A stretch of 64,000 bases of DNA from Promethearchaeota archaeon Loki_b31 (GCA_005222975.1 NJBI01000009.1:1-64000), one strand, 5' to 3'. Numbered from the stretch's first letter, positions 4,696 to 38,317 are shown. Notes: generated by a model not told the origin, from the sequence alone. Program-made: numbers and translations.

Positions 4696-4791
4696 TCTTT
4701 AATCAACTTTTTATATTTCTATAATAATTTAAGATAATATCCTTCAAAGAAGAATATATTTAAAGAAAAAAATCTAAATTCAAAAAAAAAA

Positions 4792-5370
4792 CTAGTAAAA
4801 TCCAAAGATTAGAGCTGCAAAACTACTTAAAGTTAATGCTATAGTTAAAGCAATTATTAATTTATATCTGTATACTTTCTTCTGTTTGGCGATTAATTCT
4901 TCTCGTTTTATTCTTTCCTCCATGTTATCTTTAAATAAAAATCGCCGTGAAGCCTTAGTTCTTCCTGCAAAAGCTAACATTGCACCCACTTTTTTATCTC
5001 TAAGAGTAGAAACAGCAGAAAACTTAAACGAAATTATAAGATAAATCCCTGAAGGGAAAAGAAGTAAAGTGTAACCTAATCGACGTCCTGTTAGTATATA
5101 AGAAAGCCTATAAGAGAACAAAATAAGTGCTATAAATGTAAAGAAAAAATTATTAAAAGCAAATGCTCTAATTAGATAGATATTAAATGGGTTCCGAGAT
5201 ATCCACAAAAATAAAACTACAAACGCGATAAGAACAACTATAATGATAAATATTAAAGAAACTATCAAATTGCTTAAAATAAGGATAGCAGTTAAGACCA
5301 TACATAGTGTGTTAAGGAATGTAAAAACTATATCTAGAATTTCATATTTGTTTCTTGGTAAATCATTCAT
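4792..5370 (-). CDS. Integral membrane protein (about 5 TM)
   Basis: Multiple hydrophobic helices; AT-rich relative to neighbours. Confidence 0.7.
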   Translation of the reverse strand: MNDLPRNKYEILDIVFTFLNTLCMVLTAILILSNLIVSLIFIIIVVLIAFVVLFLWISRNPFNIYLIRAFAFNNFFFTFIALILFSYRLSYILTGRRLGYTLLLFPSGIYLIISFKFSAVSTLRDKKVGAMLAFAGRTKASRRFLFKDNMEERIKREELIAKQKKVYRYKLIIALTIALTLSSFAALIFGFY

Positions 5371-5414
5371 ATATTTCCACTATAAAATTCGATATATAAA
5401 TGTTGTTGATTAAG

Positions 5415-6650
5415 TTAAATGTTAATTTGTAGATTTAATATGTTTACTAAATCTTGACCTACTGGAAGAAGGTCAGCTTGTGGAACCTCTCCCTCGAAAT
5501 AATTAAATACTACATAATCTTCGAACTTATTTTCGGTTTTGTTGTAGTTCCAGCAGGGCACGTATCCTCTCGCCCGAAACCCGAATTCGTAAAATAATTG
5601 CTGATCTTCCGGACGAAATGCTGAAATAAACGCTTCGCAATATCGTATTTTGTTAATTTTCATACTCTTTAGGAATTCTTCGAGATATACATACAATTCT
5701 TCTAAAGATTCAACACGATACTTAGTTTTCTCGAAGTTTTGAATTTGAGATGTATGTAAAAAAGTAAAGTAAGATTTTGTGCCCCTAATAAAAAATTGGT
5801 TGTACCCGTACCCGTACTTGTCGGTAATTAAATCCTTTCTGAAAGCTTTTTGTAGCTCGAAAATTTTGTTGTAGTCCAAGTCGAGGTCGGGGGAGGCCAA
5901 CTGAAAGTTCCCAAGTTTGTAAAGTTTGTCGCAGTGCAAAAAACTGTCCAAAGCGTTTTCGATCAATACCGGCGTTTTTCGTTCCCTGTACTTTTTAAGA
6001 GTTTTTTCGTGATAAATTACTCCCATAACATCTGACTCAATTCGGTTGTAGAATACATCTTTATTGGGAAAGAAAGCAACCGTATTTATCCCGCACACGG
6101 AAGTAATGTACTGAGATGCTGCGTGAGCGGTTCTGTTTTCGCAATACCACATCAAAATCTCCTTCTGATAAGTTTTCCACATCCAAGCATACGAACCAAT
6201 TATGGATTTCGTTACGTCTAAGATTCGTTGGTATTTCTTTTTTATCATAAAACCGCCAGAATATCCTTTTTTGTGCTCGAAATCTAATGAACATCGAAAA
6301 CAACCGGCGACCTCTCCGTTTATTTCGAATAAAATAAAGTGGTTGTCGGGACTCTCGATCATCTTCTTAACCATGCGCTCGTCTTCGATCTCTTTATAGG
6401 GATATGTACCATTGTACACCTCTTTACAAATACTTGCGATAATTTTAGCATCTTTAGGCTTAGCAAGTACTAAAGTGGGGCTTATTTTATCGCTTCCCAT
6501 TTTAGTGTCGATTAAAAAGTCAAGATCCATGCCTTTCTCTAAGTCTAAGTCCAATACATCTTCAAAAATTTCTAGAAATTCGTCAATTGAGTTTGGACCA
6601 AGTTTTTTGTATGGTATAATGGGATATTGAATTATTTCTTGGGTTATCAT
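5415..6650 (-). CDS. Multi-domain GNAT-like protein
   Basis: AKPKDAKIIASICKEVYNGTYPY, MIKKKYQR, ENRTAHAASQ, FGFRARGYVP patterns. Confidence 0.65.
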   Translation of the reverse strand: MITQEIIQYPIIPYKKLGPNSIDEFLEIFEDVLDLDLEKGMDLDFLIDTKMGSDKISPTLVLAKPKDAKIIASICKEVYNGTYPYKEIEDERMVKKMIESPDNHFILFEINGEVAGCFRCSLDFEHKKGYSGGFMIKKKYQRILDVTKSIIGSYAWMWKTYQKEILMWYCENRTAHAASQYITSVCGINTVAFFPNKDVFYNRIESDVMGVIYHEKTLKKYRERKTPVLIENALDSFLHCDKLYKLGNFQLASPDLDLDYNKIFELQKAFRKDLITDKYGYGYNQFFIRGTKSYFTFLHTSQIQNFEKTKYRVESLEELYVYLEEFLKSMKINKIRYCEAFISAFRPEDQQLFYEFGFRARGYVPCWNYNKTENKFEDYVVFNYFEGEVPQADLLPVGQDLVNILNLQINI

Positions 6651-6784
6651 TTTTTTTGCGCTATAACTACTTTCTATTAGTTGTATTCAACTAAAAGCGA
6701 GTCTATATAAATAAAAATTTGAAATAGATTTCTTTTTGTGAATTTTTCTTAAATTTTCTTTTAAATAGCTTCGGTAGTTAAGCT

Positions 6785-7675
6785 ATGAAAACACACAAAA
6801 ATGGTTTATTAAAGATGTTTGTCAATCAAAAATTAGATGATTGGTCAAATTCTTATTGGGAGCGCGTTACTCGGAACATTGGCCCCATAACTTATCAAGA
6901 GCAAGAAACGATTAGGACCTCGAGAGTTGCAGTTCTCGGAGTGGGCGGGTTAGGAGGTCCTTTAGCAGAAAACTTGGTTAGAGCTGGCTGCCAAAACTTA
7001 GTAATTTGCGATCACGATGTTTTCGACGAGTCCAACTTGAACCGGCAAATCTGTACCATTGATGATGTTGGTAAAAGAAAAATCGATGTTATGGAAACTT
7101 TCTTGCGAAAGATCGATCCTGAAGTTAATATTAAAAAATATTTTAAAATTATTGAGAGAAACATAGATTCAGTTCTCGAGGATGTGAAAGTTGTAGCCCT
7201 CACTTTAGACGACCCCGCTACCTCAATATTTATCGCTAGAGAGTGTCGAAAAAGAAATATTCCCATGATCGAGTCGTGGGGCGTTCCTTTTTTGTTCACT
7301 TGGTGGTTCACTCATGACAGCGTAGACTACGAAAATTGCTACGGTTTAGACACGTACCATTACAGTTATTCTGAGCTTAGAAACCCGAAAAAAGAAGTAA
7401 ATCTAGCCGTCTACCAAGCCTTATTACCGAAAGTTTTTCGAATGCCAGGAGTCAGAGAAAAGTACGACCGAGAACCGGGAGCTTTCGAAGAGATGATGTC
7501 TGGAAACATCGGAGCTCGTTCTTTTACCCCGTTTGTAAGGATTACTTCTGATTTTCTTTCTGTGGATGTGATTTTTTCCGGCATACTTAAAGTAAAACCT
7601 ATGAATTTAGCCCCCAACCTAAAAGGGTTCGATTATATACAAATGAAAGTTTGCGAAACGATTTTAACGCATTAA
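6785..7675 (+). CDS. ThiF/MoeB/HesA (E1-like) adenylyltransferase
   Basis: RNIGPITYQEQ, VLGVGGLGG, DHDVFDESNLNRQ, VGKRK; lacks the C-terminal CxxC Zn sites. Confidence 0.85.
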   Translation: MKTHKNGLLKMFVNQKLDDWSNSYWERVTRNIGPITYQEQETIRTSRVAVLGVGGLGGPLAENLVRAGCQNLVICDHDVFDESNLNRQICTIDDVGKRKIDVMETFLRKIDPEVNIKKYFKIIERNIDSVLEDVKVVALTLDDPATSIFIARECRKRNIPMIESWGVPFLFTWWFTHDSVDYENCYGLDTYHYSYSELRNPKKEVNLAVYQALLPKVFRMPGVREKYDREPGAFEEMMSGNIGARSFTPFVRITSDFLSVDVIFSGILKVKPMNLAPNLKGFDYIQMKVCETILTH

Positions 7676-7758: not shown

Positions 7759-8676
7759 TCATTTATTAAAGTTGTTAAAAAGCGAGCCTAAACTCCTCTC
7801 TACTTTTTCGAGGAATTTAGGATTGCGTTCCAATCTACTCGAAAAATATTGGTGTAAATTCTTGTAAAACAACTTCTCGTTTCCAACTAAAAGTTGAGCG
7901 TCTAAATTGCTCGTTATTAGGTAAATAAATAGCCGAACAAAAGCGTTATGAGCTATTTCCATATCAGATGGAGTTAAATCGTAATTGTCGTGTTCAGCGT
8001 TGTTTCGGATTGTTATATACTTAATTAATTCTGTGGTTACCTCCTCAGGAAAGTTTAATTTCGCTATTTTTTCAGCCATAATCTCATGTTCTACTTTAGC
8101 GTTTTTGGTATTTTTGGGTTTTTTACCATCGTCTCCAAACTTCTGGCGGTAGAGTGTTTGCAACTTGTTGTATAGTTTTACATAGAACTTATAGTTGTTG
8201 TACCCGCACATATCGAACCATTCATCGATTTTAACAGCTAAAAAGACCCGTTTTATTTCGTTCTTTATTGTGTCTTCCAAACCTAGACTTTCAGTCTCAG
8301 TAGAAGGTATTTTCTTTACTTTTGACACAAGAGTGCTAATCCTTTTTGCTATTACTTCCAACAACTCGTTTCTTTCTGCCATCTCTTGCCGTAATTGGTC
8401 GTTTGCTAAATCACACTGATTTAAGTTAGTAAAATTATTATCAACCGGAGCTTGATCGTTATTTCGCGCACGATCGAGGCAAAAGATTAAGAAGTTCGAT
8501 ATATCTTTTACCATACGACCTCGACTGCGGAGTAGGTTTTGTTTTAGTTGTTTAGGTGTGATTGCTCTCTCGCTAAAGTTTCTGATGGCGATTTTGAGCT
8601 CATCTAACTCTCCCTCGTCAAAAATTATTTTTTCTATCACTTCTTCGAACTCCTCAACTTCTTGCGTTGTTGCCAT
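7759..8676 (-). CDS. Coiled-coil protein with a C-terminal HEPN-like domain
   Basis: IRNNAEH matches RxxxxH at ~7990-8007; start overlaps the upstream stop (TAATG). Confidence 0.55.
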   Translation of the reverse strand: MATTQEVEEFEEVIEKIIFDEGELDELKIAIRNFSERAITPKQLKQNLLRSRGRMVKDISNFLIFCLDRARNNDQAPVDNNFTNLNQCDLANDQLRQEMAERNELLEVIAKRISTLVSKVKKIPSTETESLGLEDTIKNEIKRVFLAVKIDEWFDMCGYNNYKFYVKLYNKLQTLYRQKFGDDGKKPKNTKNAKVEHEIMAEKIAKLNFPEEVTTELIKYITIRNNAEHDNYDLTPSDMEIAHNAFVRLFIYLITSNLDAQLLVGNEKLFYKNLHQYFSSRLERNPKFLEKVERSLGSLFNNFNK

Positions 8677-11600
8677 TAAATCGCCCCCATATCTCCTTCG
8701 ATGTATCGTTTAAACCCATCGAAAATCTTAGAATACATCTCGAAGGTTTCTTTGCTGCGCCTTTCTATGCCTTCCTCTTCGAAAGATATGTTTCCGCATT
8801 TAGTATGGAAATCCGTTAGTTCGTTGGCGGAAAACGGAAATCCCTCTACATCTGATATTGACTTGATAAATTTGTTGATGTCTGCCCTCATAATCGCGTA
8901 ATTAACGCTATAATAAGAGTTATATATTGCGTGAAGGAACTTTTTAAGTAAGTTTTTGCCGATTTTAAGCGCTTTTTCGAATTCTTCGCTTTTAATAGAT
9001 TGATGCATTTTAAAATGTTCGTAGTATAAGATTGGAGCGAAATGCTTGGTAAAAGCGTTCTTTAGGTTTTTAGCGTTAATTTTTTGTACTTGTGAAGAAC
9101 TCTCAGATTTATCGGAGTTTTCGGATTCCACATCTAACGGTTCGTAGGAGATTACCGCATTTCTCTGGGTTTCGTAGTAGTCGTGTAAAACTTCGTCGTA
9201 GTGCGGTCCGACAACGAAAGAAGTTTGTAAGGATTCCGAACCGCTTGCCCTTCTTGGATGACTCTCAACTAAGTATCGATGTCTTACCAAAATTTCGAAA
9301 GTTTTGTTTTTGATCTCTTTTTCTCTTTTTTTATCTTTAGTTATTTTCAGAATGTAAGGATGCAGCCATTCTGTTAGCTCTTTCTTAACTTTTTGTTCGT
9401 AAAGGTTGCCTACTTGGTCCAATTTTTTTAAGTTGTTTAGAAACTTTATTATTCCCTCAATTAACACGCTATAATTTCCGAAATCTTTCTGGAACAAAGT
9501 CTTTTCTGCTCGTTGTATTATTCGTTTTTCAGCGTTTTCCAAATCGTACCCTTGCTTTCCCATGTTGGCTACAATTTCTTCCCAAGACAGCGGTTTTACG
9601 TCCCTTACTTCTTTCAAATCAAATTCTACAGGAAAAGGTTGGTAAATGTCTTCTCGTTTTACCACGGCCTCGTCTTTTTTCATGCTTGCGATGTATTTCA
9701 ATTGGTATCCTTCGTTTCTACTGCGACTATAATACCCTATCCCGTGAAGAGATTCTAAGTTCATTAGAGAGCCAAGCGTCGCGCTATCTCTTTTATCGGT
9801 CGCTTTAAAAGTAACTAAGTTTTCGAAGTAATTGAACGCGTTAGGGTGTATATATCTAATTTGAGAAGCTGAGCAGATCGTTCCAAAACCTTTTTGCTGA
9901 AAAGGTTCGAGAAACTTGTCGATTATACCGTAATTAACTTTTTTATCTATAAAAAACCCGTCAAAAATTACATCTAAATGCGGTACAATTAAGAATTTAG
10001 GGTAATAAGCCTTTTCGGTCTTTAGATAATGGATAAACTTAGAAAGAATAACGAACGTAAAGTAACACTGCTTATCGTAGTTTTTAACTTCCGAAAAATC
10101 GATAATTACCGTTTTGTCGTGCATTATAAGCTCGTAAGAGGGAATAATCTCTTGCTTATCTAATTGTTGGCGTTGCATGAAGCTTATGTCTTGGGAGGTG
10201 AACTCGCTGAAAAACGATAGTAACGAATCGGTAATAGGTGACTTTTCCCACTCTCTCATAGTAGTTAGGTCTAAAGTTAAAGTAGAAACATCTATATTGG
10301 GATTACGCGCGATAGTATTTTTGAAGGCGTCGATCGTCCTCTCGTCTTTTTTGAAGCACAACGCAAAGGCATCGAACATGTAGTCCAAATAGCCTATGTT
10401 GTCTTTATCGTAGGGAAGTTCCGAAAAAAGAGGATTAACTAGAAATGTTTTGCCAACTTTGAGGTACAAAAACTTATCTTCGTATATCGTCCCCTCGAAA
10501 ACACTCATTAATTTAGACCAATTACCGGTGAAATCGAAAATTACAGATGGATATCCCGCTTTCACGAGTTCCGCAACGATTTTTTGACACAACGCTTCTC
10601 TACTCGAATTTGTCCCGTTAGTTATGAATAGGGAGCGTAACTGCTCGAGACTAAACCCCATTGGAACTTCATTTTCTAAGAACTCAGTGTTTATGGTGTG
10701 GCCAATAGTAATAAAGTTAGTTAATTGTAAAGGTGTGTTAAATTCTGCGGCTAACCTAGTCTCGATCCCCTTTTTGAATTGGTCGGAAATTTCGGTTATA
10801 AACATAAGAGTTTTTCCTTGAAACATCAAATAATTCAAATGGGTACCGTTCCTCCTAAAAAACTTGTTTTTGAGCGTTTCGAACAGGAGCCCCGATTCTA
10901 ACTCGTTTTTTCTAAGCTGTTTTAACTCGTAAGTAACAAAAAATTGCTTGAAGCTTTTTCGCAACACCAAACTTTGATTTTTTAACTTTTGCTCTATCTC
11001 GTCAATAATCTCGTAGTCAAGAGTAGGAGCTTTTAAGATTGCCGAAGTGGAATAAGTTATAATAACACTCCAGATGCCCGATCGAGAGCTTAGCCATTTA
11101 TTTCCGTCTATAAATGATTCCGTTCTTGTTAGCAATTTTTGCTGTTCTATGTCTTTTAAGAATTTAAAACCTTCTTTATCGAACTGATGGAAGTTTAAAG
11201 GAGTTAGTTGAATCGTGGTTGTAAAAGGCATTTTTTCGTGGATGAGAGCTTCGTAAAACTTACTCGCAGAGCAATAGGGCGGCGGATGAGTGAAATACGC
11301 GTTATTAATCTTTATTCCCCCGATTATTTTTCCTTCGACTTGGTAAAAAATAGTCTCGGGCGCTTCTGATACCTTGAAAAACTTAATATCAGAAAATGGA
11401 TCCACGACCTGGATGTCGTTCGATTTAAATAACTTGTTTTTGATTAGAAAGAAAAACACCTCACGCCACCAAATTACTATTATTGCTATAAGAATCGTAA
11501 GAGTTGCTAAAAATTGTGCTATTATAGGTAAGTTAAATACTAGAAGCAACCGATCTAGACATATAACAATCGCTAAAATGTAGCTTGCTTTCAATATAAT

Positions 11601-12449
11601 AGGTTTTATTTTAGGTTCTACCGTTTTGCAATTAATTCTTTTCGAATCTTCTTCGATTTTTACGTCCTGCTTCAAAACCAGGATTCTATAGGCGTTTACT
11701 AACTCTTCTCCAGAAAGCTGAACGACCTTAAAGTGGTGGAAGTTGGAAGCAAACGCCGATTTTAAGGAGACCGCGTATTCTCGGAGTGTCTCGATCATTT
11801 TTACCAATTTCGATTCAGTAATTTTTCCTTGAATGTTGTAAAAGGTACTGAAGAAAATAATCGTCTCAAAAGTCGAAGATTCAGAATTATTGCAGTTATT
11901 ACTTGTTTGAAGCGGTCTTTGAATTATTTGATACGAAAACGGCACTTTAAGCGCATGCAATCCTTTATAGAACCGGTTTAAGTTAGCGTGTACATTTTCA
12001 GGAAGAACTTTTATCCTAAAAGTCCTAACCCCTGTAGTATTGAGCTCTTTGTAATTCGTAAAAAATAACACGAATTTGTCGTATTTTGTCTGCCAAAAAA
12101 CAATTTCTCCAAGCGGCTTAAAAGAGCGAAAATCAAATAAGTGGCGCAAGCTAAAAAAATTATTATGGAACGCCATAACAAAACTAATTGATACGATCAC
12201 TGCAATTCCAATGGAAAGCACGAGGTTATAGGTCGTGTATAGCACAGAAGAAAAAAATAACAGCCCAATTACGACTAAAGAAGTCGCTTTAAGAACTGTC
12301 TCCCTCGTGTTAACATCCTTGTAAGAAGGATTTACCTTCCACACATCCAAATACCTGCTATTGTCTTCTTTTTTGCTATCGTCGGTATTTGGTCTAAACC
12401 TATTATTACTGTTTGAATCGTTTAAAAAATCTCTGTATGTTTTTACCAT
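8676..12449 (-). CDS. Large membrane protein with a degenerate HerA/VirB4/TraD-like P-loop domain
   Basis: Two TM pairs, each followed by a similar soluble domain; then LFITNGTNSSREAL (Walker A position), SVIFDFTGNW, VNPL, TVIIDFS, LIVPHLD (Walker B position), SASQIR. Confidence 0.65.
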   Translation of the reverse strand: MVKTYRDFLNDSNSNNRFRPNTDDSKKEDNSRYLDVWKVNPSYKDVNTRETVLKATSLVVIGLLFFSSVLYTTYNLVLSIGIAVIVSISFVMAFHNNFFSLRHLFDFRSFKPLGEIVFWQTKYDKFVLFFTNYKELNTTGVRTFRIKVLPENVHANLNRFYKGLHALKVPFSYQIIQRPLQTSNNCNNSESSTFETIIFFSTFYNIQGKITESKLVKMIETLREYAVSLKSAFASNFHHFKVVQLSGEELVNAYRILVLKQDVKIEEDSKRINCKTVEPKIKPIILKASYILAIVICLDRLLLVFNLPIIAQFLATLTILIAIIVIWWREVFFFLIKNKLFKSNDIQVVDPFSDIKFFKVSEAPETIFYQVEGKIIGGIKINNAYFTHPPPYCSASKFYEALIHEKMPFTTTIQLTPLNFHQFDKEGFKFLKDIEQQKLLTRTESFIDGNKWLSSRSGIWSVIITYSTSAILKAPTLDYEIIDEIEQKLKNQSLVLRKSFKQFFVTYELKQLRKNELESGLLFETLKNKFFRRNGTHLNYLMFQGKTLMFITEISDQFKKGIETRLAAEFNTPLQLTNFITIGHTINTEFLENEVPMGFSLEQLRSLFITNGTNSSREALCQKIVAELVKAGYPSVIFDFTGNWSKLMSVFEGTIYEDKFLYLKVGKTFLVNPLFSELPYDKDNIGYLDYMFDAFALCFKKDERTIDAFKNTIARNPNIDVSTLTLDLTTMREWEKSPITDSLLSFFSEFTSQDISFMQRQQLDKQEIIPSYELIMHDKTVIIDFSEVKNYDKQCYFTFVILSKFIHYLKTEKAYYPKFLIVPHLDVIFDGFFIDKKVNYGIIDKFLEPFQQKGFGTICSASQIRYIHPNAFNYFENLVTFKATDKRDSATLGSLMNLESLHGIGYYSRSRNEGYQLKYIASMKKDEAVVKREDIYQPFPVEFDLKEVRDVKPLSWEEIVANMGKQGYDLENAEKRIIQRAEKTLFQKDFGNYSVLIEGIIKFLNNLKKLDQVGNLYEQKVKKELTEWLHPYILKITKDKKREKEIKNKTFEILVRHRYLVESHPRRASGSESLQTSFVVGPHYDEVLHDYYETQRNAVISYEPLDVESENSDKSESSSQVQKINAKNLKNAFTKHFAPILYYEHFKMHQSIKSEEFEKALKIGKNLLKKFLHAIYNSYYSVNYAIMRADINKFIKSISDVEGFPFSANELTDFHTKCGNISFEEEGIERRSKETFEMYSKIFDGFKRYIEGDMGAI

Positions 12450-13313: not shown

Positions 13314-14071
13314 TTTCTTACTTTCGCCCCCCGAAATGTTAAAAACTCGCTGTAAATCTTTTCTGCTTCGCTTTTAGGCATCGAAGCTTCTTCTAAGGAG
13401 TTTTTTGATTCGAGCTTAAACTCCTCTCGAGCTATTAACTTGTCTAAGTCCAAATCTTCTCGAATGCTACCAATATATTGATTTATCTTGTTTTCTACGC
13501 TGGATTGCTCTTTTTCGAATGTATTAATTACTGAATGATTGAACATAGCGTAAGGAAAAGTACAAGCGAACGAGATTAGTTGGAGAAAATATCCAGGACC
13601 TAACGAATAGCATAAGGTAATTTCTAATTCATTATTATAATACACTAAGAAAGGGTAGTACAAACCGTTAGGGAGCAAGAAAAACAACGGGTAGATTAAA
13701 ATGAAAAACCCAATTAAAATCACCAAGGATAAATTAACAAACCCAATCTTCTTTAATTTTGGAAGGTTATCTTTGCGTTCCGCGTCGAGAAATAATACTG
13801 AATACGCGGACAAAAAAATAACGACTAAGAAAGCAATAACAATGGCAACAGGCAGGGAAGCGTTTTTAGGCTCGTAAAAATCGTTAATGACGGCGCCTTG
13901 GGAAAATGGGGAGCTCCAATCGAACAGCGCGCTGTAAACCCAATATATTACTATTTCACCGGAATCGTTTACTCCTTGAAAGTAATACCAGTCCAAAAAC
14001 AACGAAGCAAACCCGAACAACAGACCAATTATAAAAATAATTTTGTATCCTGATTTAAAATTTAGCGTCAT
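13310..14071 (-). CDS. Four-TM membrane protein with a cytosolic C-terminal tail
   Basis: SLFLDWY loop and GPGYFL helix; first gene of a 4-gene coupled operon. Confidence 0.75.
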   Translation of the reverse strand: MTLNFKSGYKIIFIIGLLFGFASLFLDWYYFQGVNDSGEIVIYWVYSALFDWSSPFSQGAVINDFYEPKNASLPVAIVIAFLVVIFLSAYSVLFLDAERKDNLPKLKKIGFVNLSLVILIGFFILIYPLFFLLPNGLYYPFLVYYNNELEITLCYSLGPGYFLQLISFACTFPYAMFNHSVINTFEKEQSSVENKINQYIGSIREDLDLDKLIAREEFKLESKNSLEEASMPKSEAEKIYSEFLTFRGAKVRK

Positions 14072-14181
14072 ATTATACTTAGACTCTATTAATTCCTATT
14101 TATAAAGAAAAAATTAAGAAATTACAAAATCCAGAAATAGTAAATTAAATTCGTAGAAATTTTACTAATAAATTTTAATAT

Positions 14182-16053: not shown

Positions 16054-16510
16054 AGGGATCTAATCGAAAAAAATAATCCCAACTATTTAAACAAAAAATT
16101 AGAAGTAGATTAAAATTCTTCTCGTTCCATTTCAAATAGACAAATTTTCGTAATTTTTCATAAAAACAATTTTTTATTTAAATAAGGCTATCGGATTAGT
16201 TAATAGATATACTATTTTAACAAAGTTCTTGCCAAATTAAAGCCCACAAAACACCCAGAGTTGTGATAAACAAGTCTCCCCTTGCTTTTTCTAACGAGTA
16301 AGGCTCTTAATTAGGCAAGAACGACTCTTTTTATTGTTAGCAAGCAATAATAATAATTTTTTTTATTTATATATTTTAAGTCGCACTTTCTAGCAGTTCA
16401 TGAAAAAATGGTTTAACCAGTACTATAGGTGATAAATAATTTCTTTAACAAACTTTACAAGCGCTCCAAAGGATAAGGAAGACTTTAAAGATGAGGAGAT
16501 ATTTCAGTAT

Positions 16511-20443: not shown

Positions 20444-20512
20444 GCTTTCTCTAATTTTGTATCTTATCAAAATTTTTCTTTTTTAAACGCTTGATTTGAT
20501 ATCAAAGGTATA

Positions 20513-24442: not shown

Positions 24443-24537
24443 TACTACCTAAATTTATCGAGAGAATAAAAAGGAAAAATCTTAGACATATTAAGAAAAA
24501 AAAGAAAAACAAAATTTATTTAATATATAGTCAGATG

Positions 24538-27483: not shown

Positions 27484-27731
27484 AATATTTCACGTGAATA
27501 TGTTTTTAAAAAAGCTTTTAGACTAGATTAGTCGTAAGTTTATAAAAGAAAAAAAGAAGTTTCCGACAGATTTATGAATGCCAAATTAACTTGTTTTAAT
27601 TTAACTTCTATGGGTAATTTCATTATGGTAAAAATTAAAATAAATCTCGAAAACTAACTTTTCTTACCAGAGCGCTTCTCTCTTAAAAAAAGATATAACT
27701 TAATCCAACAAAAAATGTCAGTAAAGAATAT

Positions 27732-29744: not shown

Positions 29745-29783
29745 TTATTAAAAAACAAGAGAAAAAAAAGTAGGAAAGTAGCG

Positions 29784-31067: not shown

Positions 31068-31718
31068 TTTTTTATAATCACTAACTTTATTTTTAGTATT
31101 TTTTAATATTTTAATTCTGTAATTATTTTTAAACTAAGAAATGAAGATCACCAGTATGCTATTTTAAGATTTGGAATTAGGTAAAAAATAGCGTAGAAGT
31201 TCAAAAAGAAAACGCATAAAAGCGTAAATAGTGAAAATTGATGCGGAACCTAATAATTATTCTTCTAAAATTCATCAATCTATAGTGGAGGGTTTCATAT
31301 TTAGAAGATAAAATTAACAATTTTTTGTGAAAAACACAATTTTGCAATTCTAATCCCAACTAGTAAAATTATTTTTTCACAACCGTCGTAGTTACAGATT
31401 AAACTGGGAATATAAAAACAATCCTAATAGAAAAATTGATTTAAAATAATCGTGGATATATGTCAAAATAGAATTATGACAATATTCTTAATAAGATAAA
31501 AACCCCTATAAAATCTATGCATAAATCAAATATTATTAGAATTGGGTTTTAAATTTTCGACTTTTCTTAAGTCTCCCGTTGAAATTACATGTTAATTATT
31601 ATATTTGTCATAAATTTGTGAGAATTGTCCTATTTAAACCCCATTTTTTTATATAAAAGTCAAAGAAATTAAATAATTAAAATAAGACTATTAATTAAAG
31701 GAAATTCGAAAAAAAGAG

Positions 31719-31949
31719 TTGGAGCATGTGCAGAAAGACGATGATTTTCGGTTCGAAAAGTTAGATTGCCCGCGATGTAAGTCCAAGAAGATGATTAGGT
31801 TTGCGTGGGAGTCTGAAGCCGAACTCGAATGCACGGAGTGCGGAGAGCGATTTGACGAGAAAGACCTGTTAACTATCGACGACCCCTCGAACATTTTAAC
31901 TGTCAAAGAAAAGTTAGCGTTCATTCGCGCTTTCAAAGAAAGCGATTAG
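31719..31949 (+). CDS. Small Zn-ribbon protein
   Basis: CPRC...CTECG. Confidence 0.7.
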   Translation: MEHVQKDDDFRFEKLDCPRCKSKKMIRFAWESEAELECTECGERFDEKDLLTIDDPSNILTVKEKLAFIRAFKESD

Positions 31950-32023
31950 TCCTGATTTATTGAAGTCTCCTGTTTGAAGAAATCTAATTTTTTCTTTATA
32001 AATTCTCGCCATATATTGATTTT

Positions 32024-32785
32024 ATGTTGGATCTATTCTTTTGGCTGTTCTTAATGCTATTAATTTCCATCGGAGTTCAAACTTGGTATAGACGCGTTCA
32101 CACCCGGGGTCTCAAAGCGTTTCTGCACATTTTAGCCTTCGTTGGGGTTTTTGTTCACGAAGTGGCTCATTACGCCTTCAATGTTTTGTTTGGCGTCAAA
32201 ACCGGCAAAGTAAAAGTTAAATACCGTAGCGAAGATAAAATGAGGGTCGCCCCTCACGGATCGGTCGGTTTACCTGAGTTCGAGCGAAACTCTTTTCTAC
32301 AAACGTTTGTTGGCAGCGTAGCCCCGTTGTTTGTGTCGACTTTCCTTTTTCTTTTTTGCGTAGACATCATTTTCAACATACAAACTGATGCTTGGGTAAA
32401 TGTAGTTGCCATCGTTTTCTGCGTATCGCTTTTTATCGGTTCCGAACCTTCGGGGCAAGACATGAAACTAATTGGCGAGACTTTTAAAAGAGACCCGAAA
32501 TATTCCATTTACCAAATAGCTTTAGTCGTCGCGTCAGGGCTCATCGTGTGGTTTTTCGTAGACCTCTATTTTATCTACCTACCATTTGAAGTTCTATACT
32601 ACATCGAATACTTCTTTTTCGTGATATTGGTCTATTTCGTTTTGAAAACTGCCTTTTGGATTATCAGCAGTTGTTTCAGTGCTTTAAAAAGGCCTAAATT
32701 TCCAAGTATAAAGTTGTTGACTCGAAGGAGAAGGTTTAAAATGTTTGCTCCAAGAAAATTAAAAGAAAAAGAGGCGCAATGGTAA
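32024..32785 (+). CDS. Membrane metallopeptidase (M50/site-2-protease-like)
   Basis: GVFVHEVAH within a TM segment, SVAP, PSGQD. Confidence 0.75.
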   Translation: MLDLFFWLFLMLLISIGVQTWYRRVHTRGLKAFLHILAFVGVFVHEVAHYAFNVLFGVKTGKVKVKYRSEDKMRVAPHGSVGLPEFERNSFLQTFVGSVAPLFVSTFLFLFCVDIIFNIQTDAWVNVVAIVFCVSLFIGSEPSGQDMKLIGETFKRDPKYSIYQIALVVASGLIVWFFVDLYFIYLPFEVLYYIEYFFFVILVYFVLKTAFWIISSCFSALKRPKFPSIKLLTRRRRFKMFAPRKLKEKEAQW

Positions 32786-33136
32786 GTGAAAGGTTTTTGT
32801 TTAGTGGCGGTCGTAGTCGCAATGTTGATGTTTTACCAAAAAGAACCCGTATACACCCTAGTTATTATCGGTGTAGGATTATTCTTCTATTTGTTCTACA
32901 AAGCGAGAAAGAGCGGAAATGGAAACGGTCTACTGGGGGCTTTTTTGAGCAGAAATCAGACTTCGCAAGATAGAAACTTCGACGATTTAATGGCATTAAT
33001 AATGCTCCAACAACTACTCTCCAACAATCCTCAAGGCTCGAGCGCTTCAAGGGAAATATCCGAAGAGAGCCAGAAGCGTCGAGAAGAGATAGATAAAATT
33101 CAGCGAGAAGTTTTAGACTTGCTGGATAGCGATTAA
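32786..33136 (+). CDS. Small membrane protein
   Basis: Two N-terminal hydrophobic segments; starts directly after the peptidase stop. Confidence 0.7.
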   Translation: MKGFCLVAVVVAMLMFYQKEPVYTLVIIGVGLFFYLFYKARKSGNGNGLLGAFLSRNQTSQDRNFDDLMALIMLQQLLSNNPQGSSASREISEESQKRREEIDKIQREVLDLLDSD

Positions 33137-33165
33137 TCTTTTTATTTTTAGATGGTAATTAAATC

Positions 33166-33876
33166 ATGATCGAGCTCGAAGAATCGGCAATTATTTCTCA
33201 TATTTTCGATTTAGCTAAGAAAAACGGTCTTATATCGATCGCCGGCAAATCTGGTACGGGAAAAACCACCTTGGCTCTGCAATTTGTTAGCACACTTATG
33301 ACGCTCGAAAAAACTTACCGAGACCAGTGCGTCTGGATACAAGCAAGCGAACAATTTCCTAAAAAAAGGTTAAGAACGCTTTTTGAAAGTTATTCTGATA
33401 AAGTCAATTACGTTCTGAAAAACATATTTATTGCCCCTGGAATAAAACCTTTTTCTAACTACCAAGAGCAATCTTCTTACTTTAGAAAATTAAAGACCAC
33501 GATTTTTCCAAGTAACGCTAAAATCATCGTTATCGACAATATTTCCCATTTTTTGCGCTTTAACATCGCTTCTAACTCGGACTTTAAAAAACGGGGAGCT
33601 ATCATGGACGAATTTTTCAGCGTACAGTTGTTTCCCTTAATAATGCGTTGCCTAAGAGAGAAAATAATTCTTATCTTGGTCCACGAGGTTTCTTTCGATC
33701 CTACCTCAGGCAAGACAAAACCTTTTTTTAGCAAGTTATACGATAGAATTGACTCGATAAACATCAACCTCTCGAAGACTATGGGTTCGGGTCTAAAACA
33801 GATGGAAATTAGTTCGAAAGGTACCTCTACGAAGTTTGTCTACGAAATTGCAGAATCTGGAATCGTAAATTTGTAA
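33166..33876 (+). CDS. RadB/Rad51-paralog-like RecA-fold ATPase
   Basis: GKSGTGKT, WIQASEQFPKKRL, IIVIDNIS, YEIAESGI; no N-terminal HhH. Confidence 0.75.
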   Translation: MIELEESAIISHIFDLAKKNGLISIAGKSGTGKTTLALQFVSTLMTLEKTYRDQCVWIQASEQFPKKRLRTLFESYSDKVNYVLKNIFIAPGIKPFSNYQEQSSYFRKLKTTIFPSNAKIIVIDNISHFLRFNIASNSDFKKRGAIMDEFFSVQLFPLIMRCLREKIILILVHEVSFDPTSGKTKPFFSKLYDRIDSININLSKTMGSGLKQMEISSKGTSTKFVYEIAESGIVNL

Positions 33877-33969
33877 TAAGGGTTAGCGTTTCCGATTATA
33901 TAAAGGCAAAATTTTAATGTGCCAATTTTCCTTTTCCTTTAAATACATTGGTGAAGAAGATAATTTACG

Positions 33970-34344
33970 ATGAATGCGCCAAATACCACGATCACGAACG
34001 AAATAAAATGTTCGATCTGTCGAGCCGACATAAAACACCGCAAGATGTACCAAACAAGTTTGAAGCTCGGTGTGATTTGTAGGATGTGTAGGCAGCGCTT
34101 CTCAGACGAGGACATCGAGATGATTATAAACATGTTTTTCGCGTTTGGGGGATTCTTTGGGGCACTCGATAGGTCCAAATTCTCCATCGAGGATACTATC
34201 CTTGAATTTGCCAAAAATTTAGATAAAGAAAAGGTTGATTTTCATTCGCAAAACATCAGAATGTGGCATAAAGTATTAACTCACGGTATTACCCCAAAAG
34301 AGTTTTTAAAAGAATTATCAGCTTTTTCTGAGCAAGAACTGTGA
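33970..34344 (+). CDS. Zn-finger hypothetical protein
   Basis: CSIC...CRMC, FFAFGGFFG. Confidence 0.7.
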   Translation: MNAPNTTITNEIKCSICRADIKHRKMYQTSLKLGVICRMCRQRFSDEDIEMIINMFFAFGGFFGALDRSKFSIEDTILEFAKNLDKEKVDFHSQNIRMWHKVLTHGITPKEFLKELSAFSEQEL

Positions 34345-34531
34345 ATGCTTAGTATTTAGGGAATTAATATAGAAAGAATTTTAAACTTAGCTCTTCGTTT
34401 TTGTTATTTCTTATAAATATTATTATTATCCGTTATTTCATGACTTTGATACAAACAAACTATTTTTGAATTAATTCTTTAAAGATTATTTTTATGTTAT
34501 GAGTATATATCGTTAGAAGTTAGATTATTGT

Positions 34532-34654
34532 ATGAGAAAATTAGCAGAAAAACTCAAAAAAGTAGACATAGAATTATCTAAATGGACCAGAGAAGTTCTA
34601 TTTGAGCATTTAGTAGAAGTATGTCAAGATATTAAACAACATGGGAAATTATAA
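34532..34654 (+). CDS. Possible 40-aa protein (MRKLAEKLKKVDIELSKWTREVLFEHLVEVCQDIKQHGKL)
   Basis: Below the ORF-track cutoff; ATG about 28 nt after TATATAT; amphipathic, RHH-like. Confidence 0.35.
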   Translation: MRKLAEKLKKVDIELSKWTREVLFEHLVEVCQDIKQHGKL

Positions 34655-34821
34655 AGAGCCTAATACTATTTTTATTTTCCAATTTCAATTTAGTTTAAAG
34701 AGTTAGAATTTTTAATCCAATTTTTTATGAATAAATGAAATTGTGTACAATTTTTTTCTTTATTAGTAACCGTGTCTAATCTGAATTAATTTAAATTACA
34801 TTATGGAGTTGATACAAAAAA

Positions 34822-36088
34822 ACGTCAGATTTAGACCAAGTAAAAGGGATCAACGCTCGACAGATAAAGCTCTTGCAAGAGAGCGGTATTAGCACGGCGG
34901 AAGCTTTAGCAATGTCCCCACATAACATCATATCGGAGATCGACGGGTTAGGCGATAAAACAGCCAAGAAACTGATTTGGAATGCGCGAAACGCGTTAGG
35001 TATGACTGAGTTCATAACTGCCGATGACATCGACGAGAACACCGAGTACATTACCACTGGCTCTTCCGAATTAAACAGAATTTTAGGCGGCGGATTCCAA
35101 ACCGGAAAACTTACCGAAGTGTACGGACCCTTTAAGTCCGGTAAAACCAATTTAGCTCATACGATCGCTGTAACCATCCAGCTTCCTAAAAAAAAAGGAG
35201 GTTTAGGTTCCACAGTAGCCTACATCGACACCGAAAATACTTTTGCTAAGGAAAAAATCAAAAGAATCGCCAAAAGGTTTGGACTGGATCCGAAGAAGGT
35301 TCTATCGCAAATTTATCACGCCAGGATTTATTCATCGGACCACCAATCGCAAATGATTCAAAAAGCTGAAACTTTATGCAAAACTCGAAATGTGCGTTTA
35401 ATTGTAGTAGACAGTTTGATGGCGCTTTTGCGGGCCGAATATGTGGGTATTGGCATGTTAGCTCGTCGACAAAGCTTTTTGAACAATATGATACACGCCC
35501 TTTCCCGGGTTGCAGAGACATACAATTGTGCTGTTCTTCTTACCAATCAAGTTTCGACTAAGATGATGGGAATGTTTTCAGGAAACGACGCAATTGGCGG
35601 AAATAGTGATAAGATATTTCATCAATCACTTCTAAATCGTAGCCCATGGCTGCCACTTTCGTGTGATGTTTAAAACTAAAGGTTTCTCTTCCAATAATTC
35701 GTTAAAGCGGAGAGCTATAATAGTGGATGCGCCAGACTTGCCACCTGAAGAAGCAGAGTTTTACATAACGAGTGTAGGAATTGCCGACACGGAAAAGGGA
35801 GAGGTTCCCGAAGCTCAAGGCTTAGATTTCGAAGTCGAGACATTGTACGAAGAAGAGAGTAACGCCGAAGAGAGCGAAGTTTCCGATAATGGTAATGGTA
35901 ACCATTCGCTCATTGATGTTAAAGGAATTGGAGCCGGCACCGCAAAGAACTTAATAAAGGTCGGAGTAGGCTCTGTAAAAGAGTTGGTAAGTTCTGACCC
36001 CGAAAAAGTGGCTTCTAAAATTAACGGAGTCTCTTCTAAAATGGTCCTTGAATGGCAAACCAACGCAAAGACCTTGTTGAGCGTTTAA
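34822..36088 (+). CDS. radA: RadA/Rad51-family recombinase, two exons (34822-35604 + 35636-36088), 411 aa if spliced, extra C-terminal HhH
   Basis: N-terminal HhH, ITTGS..L..ILGGG, GPFKSGKT, YIDTENTF, LIVVDS, LTNQV; joining ORFs 34873-35673 and 35663-36088 restores IGGNIVAH...DAPDLPPEEAEFYITSVGI. Confidence 0.85.
35605..35635 (+). other. Candidate 31-nt BHB/BHL-type intron in radA
   Basis: Removal restores frame and motif; GTGAT/ATCAC stem, GGAA/TTCT central helix, ATA and AAA bulges. Confidence 0.7.
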
Positions 36089-36213
36089 AAATTAATAATT
36101 ATTACTATTTTTTTTTTCCTATCTACTTACTATTAGTGTTCTCTATTATCAGTGGCTTAGTTCCAGTAACTTTAGTTCTTATTTTTATATCTTTACTTAT
36201 TCGAAGAAAGAAG

Positions 36214-36441
36214 TTAAAGAACTTCGTCATAAAAATAGTACATGATTACGGCTGAAAAAATCCCTGCGGCAATAAAAGACATCGCTGACCACTCGGATGT
36301 AAACAATACAACCCAGAAATTCTTTTGAACTTGAGAAAAAGTTGTATATGCGCCCCAAATCGCTAAATTTATGGCACATGCTAAAAGAAATGCAATTACC
36401 ATCCAGATAGCAAAAATTATTATTACTTTTATAATCCACAT
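36214..36441 (-). CDS. Small 2-TM membrane protein
   Basis: Hydrophobic 75-aa ORF. Confidence 0.5.
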   Translation of the reverse strand: MWIIKVIIIFAIWMVIAFLLACAINLAIWGAYTTFSQVQKNFWVVLFTSEWSAMSFIAAGIFSAVIMYYFYDEVL

Positions 36442-36559
36442 CTTTTATGTAAAATGCTTATTTTTATCATAGTTAACGCAGATTATCTATTTATATGTAT
36501 ATGGAACGATTTTTTACAAAAAATGAAGCAATTATTAAATTAAGATTTTAGTAAAAAAG

Positions 36560-37591
36560 TTAATTGGTCCGCAAACTGACAGAGTTCTTTTTCCTGCGAA
36601 CGCTTCCTATAACGATCAAAGCTCCAACTACGAGTCCCGCGCTGAGGATAAACCCGAGAGTCCATTCTATCGGCACATAAAAGTAGCCTTGAATAGTTCC
36701 GTTGGTTGGTTCGGGGTCTGGCTCGGTTCCGTTTATACCGGTGCTTATAGAATAGTCTTCAGCTATCGCGTAAGCTATGTTTACCACGTCGACCTTGCAA
36801 TAGATTTTGATTTTAACAGTGTAAACTCCGCCAACCGCGGTCCCGAAGTTAAAGTGCAAGACCGTTCCAACGTTTCCAACGGTGTCGTTTCTGTAGATAA
36901 TAAAGTTGATGTCGTCGGGGTCGGTTAGATCGTAATCAATGCCGACTTCTTGACTAATTGGCTCGCCTCCAATCGCAGAAACTCTTCCGAGATAAAATTT
37001 GTAAGACACATCGGTTTTAAGCATTACGTTGTGTTCAATAATCGATCCGGCGAGAAACTTGTTGACTTGATATAACTCTAGATTGGCGATGAATTCAGGA
37101 GACATGATGTCGTACAGGCATTTGTCTTCCTTATCAAAAGAGATTTTAATGTATAAATTTAAGTTCAGCTCGGCAATAACCGAAAAAATAAGAGTGTAGT
37201 TTCCGTCAATCGCCGTCCCGAACGGTATTTCGAACCACTGGTCGCCGTGCGACACGTTGACTTCGGTTTTGAATATTTGATAAATGTCTGAGTCGGGATC
37301 TACCACCGTAACGTTGATCTCGCAATCGTGTGGCGTTACGATTTCTACTAAGATGTAATAATTGAGCTCTTCGTACAAGTACAAGTCGTCGAACTGTTGA
37401 ATATCGCTCGGAGCTAGAAATGTGAACACTTTGTCTACGAGCAATTCTTCGGAGCTCGCGTTAGGCGCGTCTATAAGTGCTAACTCGATATTTTCGTTGC
37501 CATTGAAGATAATTCGAAATTTATTAGTTAACAACCCAATAGTTAATCCTGATACGACCAAAAAAGCAAAAAGTATCGCTTTTGTATGCAA
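36560..37591 (-). CDS. Surface protein with two beta-sandwich-like repeats and a C-terminal TM anchor
   Basis: N-terminal signal/TM; repeated DPD...FGTA..G.YT; TM plus RRKK. Confidence 0.75.
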   Translation of the reverse strand: MHTKAILFAFLVVSGLTIGLLTNKFRIIFNGNENIELALIDAPNASSEELLVDKVFTFLAPSDIQQFDDLYLYEELNYYILVEIVTPHDCEINVTVVDPDSDIYQIFKTEVNVSHGDQWFEIPFGTAIDGNYTLIFSVIAELNLNLYIKISFDKEDKCLYDIMSPEFIANLELYQVNKFLAGSIIEHNVMLKTDVSYKFYLGRVSAIGGEPISQEVGIDYDLTDPDDINFIIYRNDTVGNVGTVLHFNFGTAVGGVYTVKIKIYCKVDVVNIAYAIAEDYSISTGINGTEPDPEPTNGTIQGYFYVPIEWTLGFILSAGLVVGALIVIGSVRRKKNSVSLRTN

Positions 37592-37592
37592 T

Positions 37593-37910
37593 TTAATAGC
37601 CGTACACCTCCAATTCTTTGAACTCCGAGATTAATTCCTTAACGATGGGACATCTGTCGTAATCGATGCAGGTAAAACACGGTTGGTCCGACCAGAAATA
37701 CGCTTTTTGGTCCGGTCTTTCGACTATAAGTAGCGGGAACTTGCTTTTTGGACATTCCAGAGCCGAATTGTTTATTTTACCTCTTTTAGGTAGCGCGTAC
37801 GAGAGTCCGCACACCTCGCACTTAACGAACCGTTTGTAATTGTTCGTCTTAAAAACGATTAGAGAGCACTCGCAACTAGGGCAAGCGCCTATTTCATCTA
37901 GTTTTTTCAA
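37593..37910 (-). CDS. Stand-alone topoisomerase IA C-terminal-type Zn-ribbon protein
   Basis: IGACPSC...KRFVKCEVC..SYALPKRG....CPK. Confidence 0.65.
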   Translation of the reverse strand: MKKLDEIGACPSCECSLIVFKTNNYKRFVKCEVCGLSYALPKRGKINNSALECPKSKFPLLIVERPDQKAYFWSDQPCFTCIDYDRCPIVKELISEFKELEVYGY

Positions 37911-38317
37911 CTGAAAAACTCCTTTAATTTAATTTTAAAGGGAAAAATAGCTTGGGCTATTTAAAGAAAAAAAGGCTTTCCGACAAAAAATCAGAAATCA
38001 AGGAAAGAGGTTTCTTTTAAATGAAACGATGTTCCTTTTAAATTTTGAAACTCCTTTATTTTTTTTTTAGATTGGTTAGGGTTTTTAATTCTAACCTTTC
38101 TTTTTTATTACATTAATCAAGTCTAAAAGCATTCGCCAATTTCTCCACTAAACAATTTTACTACTTTTAAAAATCCCTGTAAATTTTTAATAAATAATAT
38201 TCTATACCTTTTTTTTTAAAAAACTAATATCTAATGCTTCTATTTTTATATTTTAAATTATAAAAGATATTGTATAAGTAGAAACATTTAAAAAAAAGCC
38301 AAAAAAGAGGTAAGAAA

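Follow-up and report, generated by a model that had tools for sequence, protein, structure and literature searches.

A T-rich element at the BRE position marks promoters of a conserved Asgard gene island and may be read by a divergent TFB paralog

Loki-type Asgard archaea possess a conserved gene island of ~30 kb, most of whose transcription units are preceded by a TATA-like box with a T-rich element where a purine-rich BRE would be expected. From 4.7 to 38 kb of the stretch of DNA analysed here (64,000 nucleotides, hereafter the window), 13-14 of the ~19 transcription units have this T-type element ahead of them in sense orientation, compared with ~1/200 upstream regions outside the island (Fisher p about 1e-9). 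The island encodes Hel308- and Hef-like helicases, a RadA paralog, a KaiC/RadB-like ATPase, a HerA/VirB4-like protein in a membrane operon, a membrane-tethered HhH protein, a ThiF-like enzyme and GNAT-like proteins, together with a divergent TFB. On balance, we favour a model in which the island units and a handful of outside genes form a regulon that has its own core promoter and is switched by this TFB much as by a sigma factor. Such a switch probably belongs to the island itself, and the TFB paralog plausibly reads the T-type element.

The shared element, aaTTTTT(T/C)C, directly adjoins a TTTAWAWA box. In the 75-78 sites underlying the position weight matrix (PWM), T4-Y-C lies immediately 5' of TTTAWAWA in a fixed register, with T4, C and TTT invariant. 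If the TATA box spans -30 to -23, the element covers about -31 to -38; it fills the 6-7 bp immediately upstream of TATA that a BRE occupies, but its coding strand is T-rich instead of purine- or A-rich. This bears out the original prediction of a T-rich element in place of the BRE: all 16 quoted strings are present as expected, and 12 of the 13 upstream of cluster genes are in sense orientation, 17-138 nt 5' of the named start codon. Some entries needed correction (Table 1). The list lacked the box before gene 20513 (20470-20489, +); gene 24442 does have a T-type promoter, but the conserved box is 24465-24480 (-) and not the proposed 24489-24503; and the boxes before 6650, 16511 and 31719 exist only as weaker variants without the C. 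For gene 23867-24442, 22 nt separate the end of the TATA box from the ATG in 10/10 species. The same distance measures 20-27 nt for the orthologs of genes 33970 and 32024, whereas for gene 20513 it is 20-27 nt in 5/9 orthologs and 45-47 nt in three others. Such short, fixed spacing fits leaderless mRNAs started ~23 nt downstream of the TATA box.

Table 1. Promoters of the island and the gene of the divergent TFB (positions counted from the first nucleotide of the window)
Feature	Position	Strand	Gene or operon; remarks
T-type promoter TTTTTTTCTTTAAATA	4757..4772	-	GNAT-like gene 3520-4695; 16.9 bits; G015 ortholog with same box
T-type variant without C TTTTTATTTATATA	6704..6717	-	Gene 5415-6650; full motif in orthologs
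T-type promoter	6754..6767	+	ThiF/E1-like gene 6785-7675, divergent from 6650
T-type promoter	14099..14114	-	Membrane operon 13310-14071, 12459-13313, 8676-12449, 7759-8676; 17.8 bits; box kept in G015, G008, G002
T-type promoter, G replacing C	16084..16098	-	Membrane-tethered HhH protein gene 14182-16053
T-type variant, far upstream	16358..16373	+	Hel308-like helicase gene 16511-18961; orthologs with full motif 52-69 nt from start
T-type promoter	20470..20489	+	Small gene 20513-20800; kept in 8 relatives
T-type promoter	24465..24480	-	Operon 23867-24442, 21670-23850 (Hef-like helicase), 21108-21668
T-type promoter	27539..27555	-	981-aa alpha/alpha-toroid surface protein gene 24538-27483
Divergent TFB paralog, 427 aa	29784..31067	-	Zn ribbon, two cyclin repeats, predicted HTH, C-terminal extension
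Paralog's own promoter	31140..31168	-	TATA-like box, then conserved ACTGGTGATCTTCATT box; no T-type element
Weak T-run/TATA string	31645..31657	+	Small Zn-ribbon ORF 31719-31949
T-type promoter	31987..32002	+	Operon 32024-32785, 32786-33136, 33166-33876 (KaiC/RadB-like ATPase); 17.8 bits
T-type promoter TTTTCCTTTAAATA	33930..33945	+	Gene 33970-34344; 17.9 bits; box 20-24 nt from ATG in 11 sequences
T-type promoter	34749..34766	+	Island's split RadA paralog, 34873-35673 and 35663-36088
T-type promoter	37958..37973	-	Operon 37593-37910 (Zn-finger protein) and 36560-37591; right edge of syntenic block

Comparison of cluster and genome-wide upstream regions revealed enrichment in the cluster by regular expression and by PWM alike. 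A strict expression (at least four T, C, two to four T, AWAWA) has 57 intergenic matches in 3.52 Mb; the window's initial 38.1 kb account for 8 of these versus 0.6 expected (Poisson 3e-7). The PWM scan, which counts intergenic sense matches of at least 16 bits within 120 nt of an ORF, yielded 17 matches with 6 in the island, as against 4 and 2 for the reversed and complemented control matrices (Fisher p 2e-9); a PWM built solely from 55 sites of 8 distant relatives gave 18 matches, 6 again in the island (controls 5 and 0). Promoter-proximal sense matches thus exceed the controls 4- to 8-fold and are concentrated in 1% of the genome. Restriction to such positions is essential for the signal to emerge: an exact 15-mer pattern counted across the whole genome, coding DNA included, occurs 21 times versus 17 for the reversed control in G000, and in most genomes these counts barely surpass the control. 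Plain 8-mer counts were uninformative in this AT-rich DNA, and a first EM run seeded with TATA only ended in a T-rich model of low information, which was set aside. Confinement of the motif to the cluster is not strict: ~7-10 more promoters in other parts of the genome carry it. A few matches outside the island are repeats.

The exact-pattern counts and these repeats are what might be expected if the motif were a chance or compositional artefact of a genome with 31.5% GC, or a recent duplication of one promoter. We consider such an origin exceedingly improbable and discarded it on the strength of the control matrices and of orthologous conservation. The spacers flanking the T-type boxes are unrelated to one another, and the boxes are conserved at orthologous positions across the genus and, in variant form, across genera. 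Orthologous promoters retain the element in at least 10 related genomes. Across 11 such promoter groups, each compared in 8-10 genomes with protein identities of 35-90%, the C (or G) keeps its position and its register to the TATA box, while the surrounding spacer diverges between genomes.

Ordinary promoters of this genome look different and have the A-rich flanks predicted for housekeeping genes. Three observations agree on this point: tRNA genes display A5-7 followed by TTTA, the genome-wide EM promoter model has A at -3 with a frequency of 0.77, and A-rich flanks of TATA-like boxes number 70 in sense versus 35 in antisense. T-rich flanks are distributed evenly (76 sense versus 80 antisense), which means that T-runs do not mark promoters in general in this genome. 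We also considered the T-type element as an inverted canonical BRE. Although the A-run and T-run are complementary, the base preceding canonical A-runs is only weakly G/C (28% versus 18% in antisense), and therefore the invariant C lacks a clear canonical counterpart.

In archaea, oligo-T tracts signal termination, and nucleosomes form less readily on poly(dA:dT). The T-run might accordingly be a structural or chromatin feature, namely histone-excluding poly(dA:dT), bent UP-like DNA or a neighbour's terminator located beside TATA, and about half of the T-type boxes do follow a co-directional gene. Seven boxes, however, are situated in divergent intergenic regions (6650/6785, 16053/16511, 27483, 32024 and 37910), as had been proposed for several cases, and so do not terminate a preceding gene on the same strand. 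Together with the conserved C and TATA register, this placement led us to reject an oligo-T intrinsic terminator. Preservation of both features across genomes, the missing sense bias of T-rich flanks genome-wide and the fact that the motif travels with particular genes make any structural reading improbable.

The motif also accompanies genes located outside the island. Genes flanking the island in G015 carry it, and so do the corresponding G000 genes C9_4945 and C82_39822, which lie on other contigs; in other genera, the protein of C9_4945 was not detected. In G038, the Roadblock-like gene is part of the island and likewise has a T-rich promoter. Within the genus the island is syntenic but resides in different flanks, and some genomes (G008) contain several copies. 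No integrase was found on checking whether the island is a mobile element, and Rfam has no family in the window. A search with the paralog profile detected no TFB paralog in two genus-g2 genomes, and in G032 the 80 kb around a homolog of the Zn-finger protein hold no other island gene. In the fragmented genome G035, an orthologous gene has a T-rich promoter, yet no paralog was found. Part of the co-occurrence of paralog and motif is trivial, since the island includes the gene of the paralog.

By profile and fold comparison, the protein encoded at 29784-31067 is a TFB, as the original prediction had it, with Zn ribbon, two cyclin repeats and a predicted terminal helix-turn-helix (HTH). The cysteines C24, C27, C41 and C44 are invariant in 10 orthologs and align to the TFB Zn ribbon, which in the paralog weakly matches the 1pft TFIIB ribbon. 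Comparison by hhalign with the five canonical TFBs gave a probability of 97.2% (E 4.2e-11) over 249 columns from Zn ribbon to HTH, covering both cyclin repeats. The top six PDB profile matches are all TFIIB, and the top Foldseek matches comprise TFIIB, Brf2 and P. woesei TFB (1d3u_B among the matches; E down to 1.5e-6). Identity to canonical archaeal TFBs is ~15-18%, and the Pfam TFIIB repeat PF00382, which all five canonical TFBs of the genome match, failed to match the paralog even at E 10, only weak HTH matches being returned. The structure model has a mean pLDDT of 52.5 and is confident only for residues 100-260; the HTH region 263-305 aligns to the TFB HTH but remains below 50, so that the helix correspondence rests on the profile alignment. 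The B-reader/linker region is kept within the paralog family and is not confidently alignable to canonical TFBs.

The predicted recognition helix of the HTH is rewritten. All five canonical TFBs read VTEVTLRSRYKE (V-T-E-V/A-T-L/I-R in 5/5), whereas the paralog has KMSTIHRQVE, with K-M-S-T-I-H invariant in 10 orthologs. We provisionally equate the changed residues with TFIIB positions V283 and R286, which reportedly contact bases (Lagrange 1998; Tsai & Sigler 2000). In another genus, the paralog carries the helix T-A-S-T-V-Y and the promoters of its island read T8-G-Y-TTTTATAAA; a second paralog subfamily with the helix S-P-S-S-L-Q is located behind and beside T-type promoters. This covariation of helix and motif spans only 2-3 lineages.

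These features are compatible with the following plausible mechanism. TBP, for which the genome has a single gene, would occupy the TATA box, and T-type promoters would stay silent where canonical TFBs meet no A-rich BRE. The divergent TFB may bind TBP, contact the T-rich element via its altered C-terminal HTH and recruit RNA polymerase via the retained Zn ribbon. Given that the promoter of the paralog gene is of another type, its presumed start being covered by a conserved box, an upstream signal would turn on the paralog first and the paralog would then turn on the regulon, like a bacterial alternative sigma factor. The original proposal, an alternative BRE recognised by the TFB paralog encoded nearby, is thus partly supported: the sequence-level predictions that could be checked agreed with it, although the motif also spreads beyond the cluster.

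The closest known system is the TFB3/Orc1-2 DNA-damage regulon of Sulfolobales (Ups pili, Ced DNA importer) with its element A(N)TTTC. Like that regulon (PMC5817253, PMC6101591, PMC6061795), the Asgard system links a TFB paralog to a dedicated set of genes, among them those for a membrane VirB4/HerA-like protein and for DNA handling, and its promoters have a short non-palindromic T-rich element ending in C, with a weak or absent BRE. A separate sequence-specific activator at the T-type element, recruiting canonical TFB and TBP to a deliberately weak BRE, would create the same picture, the pairing of paralog and element being deduced by sequence comparison; in that case, the divergent TFB would act as a TFB3-like co-activator or in some other capacity. 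Precedents are Orc1-2 on A(N)TTTC of Sulfolobales DNA-damage promoters, likewise T-rich with C at the end, and Ptr2/PF1088-type activators; archaeal activators are known to bind just 5' of weak BREs. The island, moreover, encodes other small Zn-ribbon or possible DNA-binding proteins as candidates. We nevertheless grant this possibility limited credence. The Sulfolobus element sits at -44 to -39, 5' of the BRE, and is linked to Orc1-2, whereas the Asgard element abuts TATA and leaves no space for a BRE between; on this location we rejected the Sulfolobales UV/DDR hexanucleotide as its identity. Unlike TFB3, the paralog retains both cyclin repeats and a predicted HTH in addition to the Zn ribbon, and its changes are located in the recognition helix and invariant within the family. 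The further small proteins of this kind are 21108-21668 (DUF1922), 37593-37910 and 31719-31949.

The favoured model, a dedicated TFB with its own element, can be compared with other systems. In Sulfolobus acidocaldarius, TFB2 drives a cell-division regulon, and TFB1 and TFB2 promoters share near-identical TATA boxes and similar BREs, differing in spacing only (bioRxiv 10.64898/2026.09.06.749720). The Asgard paralog resembles TFB2 as a full-length TFB with a specific promoter subset and a putative role in a transcriptional programme, but the sequence at the BRE position is the complement of the canonical one (T-run versus A-run). The Pyrococcus woesei TBP/TFBc/BRE-TATA complex (PDB 1D3U) is alike in fold, domain order and element position relative to TATA; the Asgard protein differs in its helix and in its pyrimidine-rich instead of purine-rich coding-strand element, and it extends ~110 aa further at the C terminus. 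Bacterial alternative sigma factors for competence or stress offer an analogy only: one factor paralog, a private promoter code and one regulon, with the factor's own gene under a different promoter, although here the protein system is TFB/TBP. Haloarchaea reportedly have expanded TFB paralogs with partly distinct target sets (Facciotti 2007; Turkarslan 2011). No haloarchaeal TFB is known to us to have a clearly distinct BRE sequence of its own; the Asgard promoter class, by contrast, is sharply distinct.

The literature searched yielded no description of an Asgard promoter, BRE or TFB paralog, and no archaeal TFB paralog tied to a clearly different BRE sequence. TFB paralogs are often likened to alternative sigma factors; here a sharply distinct promoter class goes together with a TFB that has an altered putative DNA-reading helix, offering a directly testable candidate for promoter-code switching by a basal factor. 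Asgard archaea are the archaeal lineage closest to eukaryotes, in which TFIIB paralogs (Brf, Rrn7/TAF1B) later defined separate polymerase systems. The ~20 promoters of the regulon, mostly of uncharacterised Asgard genes, are probably co-expressed, which would provide a handle on gene function.

A broader reading, which we regard as rather doubtful, is that the inverted-looking T-rich BRE and its full-length TFB constitute a true second core-promoter code of Lokiarchaeia, which would turn on as one unit an inducible membrane DNA-handling programme, an Asgard counterpart of competence or DNA exchange. Its content would be the HerA/VirB4-like membrane complex, the membrane HhH DNA binder, the spare RadA/RadB, the Hel308- and Hef-type helicases and a Roadblock-small GTPase pair.

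Upstream of most transcription units in the 4.7-38 kb region of the window lie five to seven T, a C and then TTTAWAWA, as read from a coding-strand printout of all upstream regions; the C is replaced by G once and is absent at some promoters. We refer to this arrangement, aaTTTTT(T/C)C abutting a TTTAWAWA TATA box, as T-type, and to the conserved recombination-and-membrane gene block that carries it as the island. The original prediction had taken the T-run for an alternative BRE read by a local TFB paralog, and all sixteen strings quoted in its support were found in the window. A further box, before gene 20513, had been overlooked. Seven of the boxes lie in divergent intergenic regions and, as had been argued, therefore cannot be terminators belonging to a preceding gene.

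The contrast with ordinary promoters also holds. In the source genome (G000; 3.52 Mb, 31.5% GC, 99 contigs), which protein names in public databases assign to Loki-type Asgard archaea, tRNA genes carry A5-7 followed by TTTA 40-50 nt 5' of the mature 5' end, and an EM model of promoters, started from an A-rich BRE, settles on aaAaa-TTTwwawa (A at -3, 0.77). A-rich flanks at TATA-like boxes are found 70 times in sense versus 35 times in antisense orientation, whereas T-rich flanks display no orientation bias (76 versus 80). The canonical BRE of this genome is thus A-rich, like that of other archaea. Ordinary genes are additionally preceded by a Shine-Dalgarno-like, G-rich signal at -8 to -12. 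At the A-type promoter of gene 1852-2250 (-), GAAAAATTTAAATA, the plus strand presents a T-type-looking string that is the same palindromic DNA (TATA, A5/T5, TATA), so that isolated T-type matches can arise by chance.

A strict regular expression gave 57 intergenic matches genome-wide; the first 38.1 kb of the window contain 8 of these, where 0.6 would be expected (p = 3e-7). For a genome scan we used a weight matrix of 16 columns derived from 89 orthologous upstream regions, with its reversed and complemented forms as controls, and counted intergenic, sense matches of at least 16 bits within 120 nt of an ORF. The T-type matrix yielded 17 matches in the genome, 6 of which fall in the island (Fisher p = 2e-9); the control matrices produced 4 and 2, with none in the island. 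To avoid circularity, a second matrix was confined to 55 sites taken from eight distant relatives; it likewise returned 18 matches, 6 of which are island sites (control, 5 and 0). By both approaches the T-rich element is enriched in the island and is not equally frequent at promoters genome-wide. When coding DNA is included and the entire genome counted, the exact pattern is no more frequent than its reversed control (21 versus 17), which identifies the signal as a property of promoters rather than of composition.

At least ten genomes of the genus share the block from 8676 to 37910 in synteny, with proteins that are 35-95% identical, and differ in its flanks; the right flank of the window holds metabolic genes (alpha/beta hydrolase, acyl-CoA synthetases, CdhC). 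The T-type motif is kept at 11 orthologous promoter groups while the remaining spacer has diverged. Its matrix columns comprise four invariant T, T/C, C (0.82), an invariant TTT and then A-W-A-W-A. At +6 after the TATA box a purine, often preceded by C, is present in 92% of 75 T-type sites and may mark a second, downstream contact. For gene 23867-24442, to which a wrong T-run had been assigned, the conserved box ends 22 nt from the ATG in ten out of ten species. The corresponding distances are 20-24 nt for gene 33970, 21-27 nt for 32024 and 25-30 nt for 14182; for 20513, they amount to 24-29 nt in six of nine orthologs and to 45-47 nt in the other three. Such a spacing is what would be expected for transcription starting at or just before the ATG, and it gives an indirect answer to the condition set with the original prediction, that start sites should map ~25-30 nt downstream of the boxes. 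Sequencing runs containing 28101-38100 include marine sediment and cold-seep samples; no RNA run was among them. Two genes inside the island, coding for an HD-domain protein and a NosD/beta-helix surface protein, have no T-type promoters and for this reason look like later insertions. Of the relatives compared, only the closest ones gave matches to them, and 27732-28124 matched none.

Coordinates of promoter elements, genes and loci (window positions refer to G000 contig C16; other G numbers denote related genomes)
Feature	Sequence	Position
TFB paralog gene	window	29784-31067 (-)
Paralog gene promoter	window	31140-31168 (-)
T-type box of gene 23867-24442	window	24465-24480
T-type box before gene 20513	window	20470-20489
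A-type promoter of gene 1852-2250 (-)	window	2276-2303
HD-domain gene	window	19538-20443
NosD/beta-helix surface protein gene	window	27732-29744
RadA paralog, overlapping frames	window	34873-35673 and 35663-36088
105-aa Zn-finger protein gene	window	37593-37910
Zn-finger homolog with in-frame TGA	G032:C1	1594788-1595105
Zn-finger homolog with in-frame TGA	G028:C360	6195-6512
Zn-finger homolog with in-frame TGA	G036:C183	2036-2368
Roadblock-like gene, T-type promoter	G000 C82	39142-40355
Roadblock-like gene, T-type promoter	G000 C65	40572-41105
Roadblock-like gene, T-type promoter	L067 (G038)	873-2016
Ortholog of G015 flank gene, T-type box	G000 C9	4945-6072
Ortholog of G015 flank gene, T-type box	G000 C82	39822-40355
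Second mini-island	L068 (G004:C109)	9139-10047
Second mini-island	L069 (G017:C53)	6508-7245
Near-identical ~31-nt stretch	G000 C19	22870
Near-identical ~31-nt stretch	G000 C97	25519
Near-identical ~31-nt stretch	G000 C44	14916

The 427-aa product of the paralog gene has no Pfam TFIIB match, whereas the five canonical TFBs of the genome match strongly. Profile-profile comparison of an alignment of ten paralog orthologs with an alignment of these five TFBs nevertheless gave a probability of 97.2% (E 4.2e-11) over 249 columns spanning the Zn ribbon, both cyclin repeats and the terminal helix-turn-helix. The six best PDB matches of the paralog profile are all TFIIB (E 0.016), and the best Foldseek matches of its AlphaFold model, which is poor overall (pLDDT 52.5) and good for residues 100-260, are TFIIB, Brf2 and P. 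woesei TFB (E 1.5e-6). On these grounds, the protein is a genuine TFB, though a highly divergent one that bears an additional tail at its C terminus. Its family forms 329 clusters at 90% identity in public databases, almost always annotated as 'hypothetical protein' in MAGs labelled Lokiarchaeota or Hermodarchaeota, and sometimes by JGI as TFIIB/Brf1.

The recognition helix reads G-V-T-E-V/A-T-L/I-R-x-R-Y/V-K in all five canonical TFBs and G-I-K-M-S-T-I-H-R-Q-V-E in the paralog, with M to H invariant in ten orthologs. It is I-T-A-S-T-V-Y-S-H-I-K in the paralog of G038, a complete genome from another genus of the order, and I-S-P-S-S-L-Q-K-S-I-Q in a shorter paralog subfamily (G004, G017). We take the canonical V and R to be the counterparts of V283 and R286 of human TFIIB, which contact BRE bases; at these two positions, S and H/Y/Q occur in all three lineages associated with T-type promoters. 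Since the genome encodes a single TBP (237 aa, contig C44), an alternative TBP is ruled out as an explanation of these promoters. On balance, we regard a T-rich alternative BRE, with the local TFB paralog as its predicted reader, as the best available explanation and as slightly more likely than not. The main rival, binding of the T element by a separate activator, appears possible but rather unlikely. The nearest functional analogue of the island regulon is the UV response of Sulfolobales; its element at -44 to -39 is located upstream of a weak BRE, unlike the TATA-abutting element of the island (PMC5817253, PMC6101591, PMC6061795). For S. acidocaldarius TFB2, BREs are similar and spacing differs (bioRxiv 10.64898/2026.09.06.749720). 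Our literature search found no paper on a T-rich BRE or on the island TFB paralog.

The T-type element is absent from the promoter of the paralog gene itself. Here, a TATA-like box is directly followed by a ACTGGTGATCTTCATT box, conserved in ten species; G012 has a canonical A-run and TTTTTAAATA as TATA-like box. Archaeal repressors typically bind directly after the TATA box, and the ACTGGTGATCTTCATT box may serve as an operator or coincide with the transcript's 5' end. This differing promoter would fit a two-step cascade, in which the paralog gene would be expressed first, under separate control, and the T-type regulon next.

Beyond the island, some 7-10 promoters of the source genome belong to the T-type class after subtraction of the control rate, most of their genes being without a Pfam family; in all, the class numbers roughly 20 transcription units. 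The island of G015 is flanked by further T-type genes, whose orthologs in the source genome reside on other contigs and also have T-type boxes. T-type promoters thus probably define a regulon rather than a regional property. In G038, a rearranged homologous island (Hel308-like, RadA, Zn-finger, paralog, HerA-like, Hef-like and GNAT-like genes) has T8-G-(C/T)-TTTTATAAA promoters. It includes a 177-aa Roadblock-like gene that adjoins the paralog behind a T-rich promoter and, as in G035, precedes a small GTPase-like gene. The complete genome of a third genus, G032, contains no paralog, even by profile search; a single island gene was detected in it, and no second one occurs within the surrounding 80 kb. 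In some members of the genus, the shorter TFB-like paralog (302 aa, 34% identity) is encoded in a second mini-island, where a 19-bit T-type box precedes its gene; this mini-island also encodes two large proteins (655 and 1360 aa) and a membrane protein homologous to that of 32024. Neither mini-island nor shorter paralog was found in the source genome, which encodes homologs of the two large proteins on contig C13.

In other genera, genes homologous to that of the 105-aa Zn-finger protein have one or two TGA codons in frame; these could either specify selenocysteine in place of a Cys or indicate broken genes. A near-identical stretch of ~31 nt with a T-type box, GTCATTTTTTCTTTAAATACTCAGTGAAATA, recurs on three contigs of the source genome and may represent a repeat element or a promoter that was duplicated. 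The island RadA paralog is divided between two overlapping frames. Strong Rad51-family matches number at least four in the genome, and one of them, on contig C63, shows the same truncated match.
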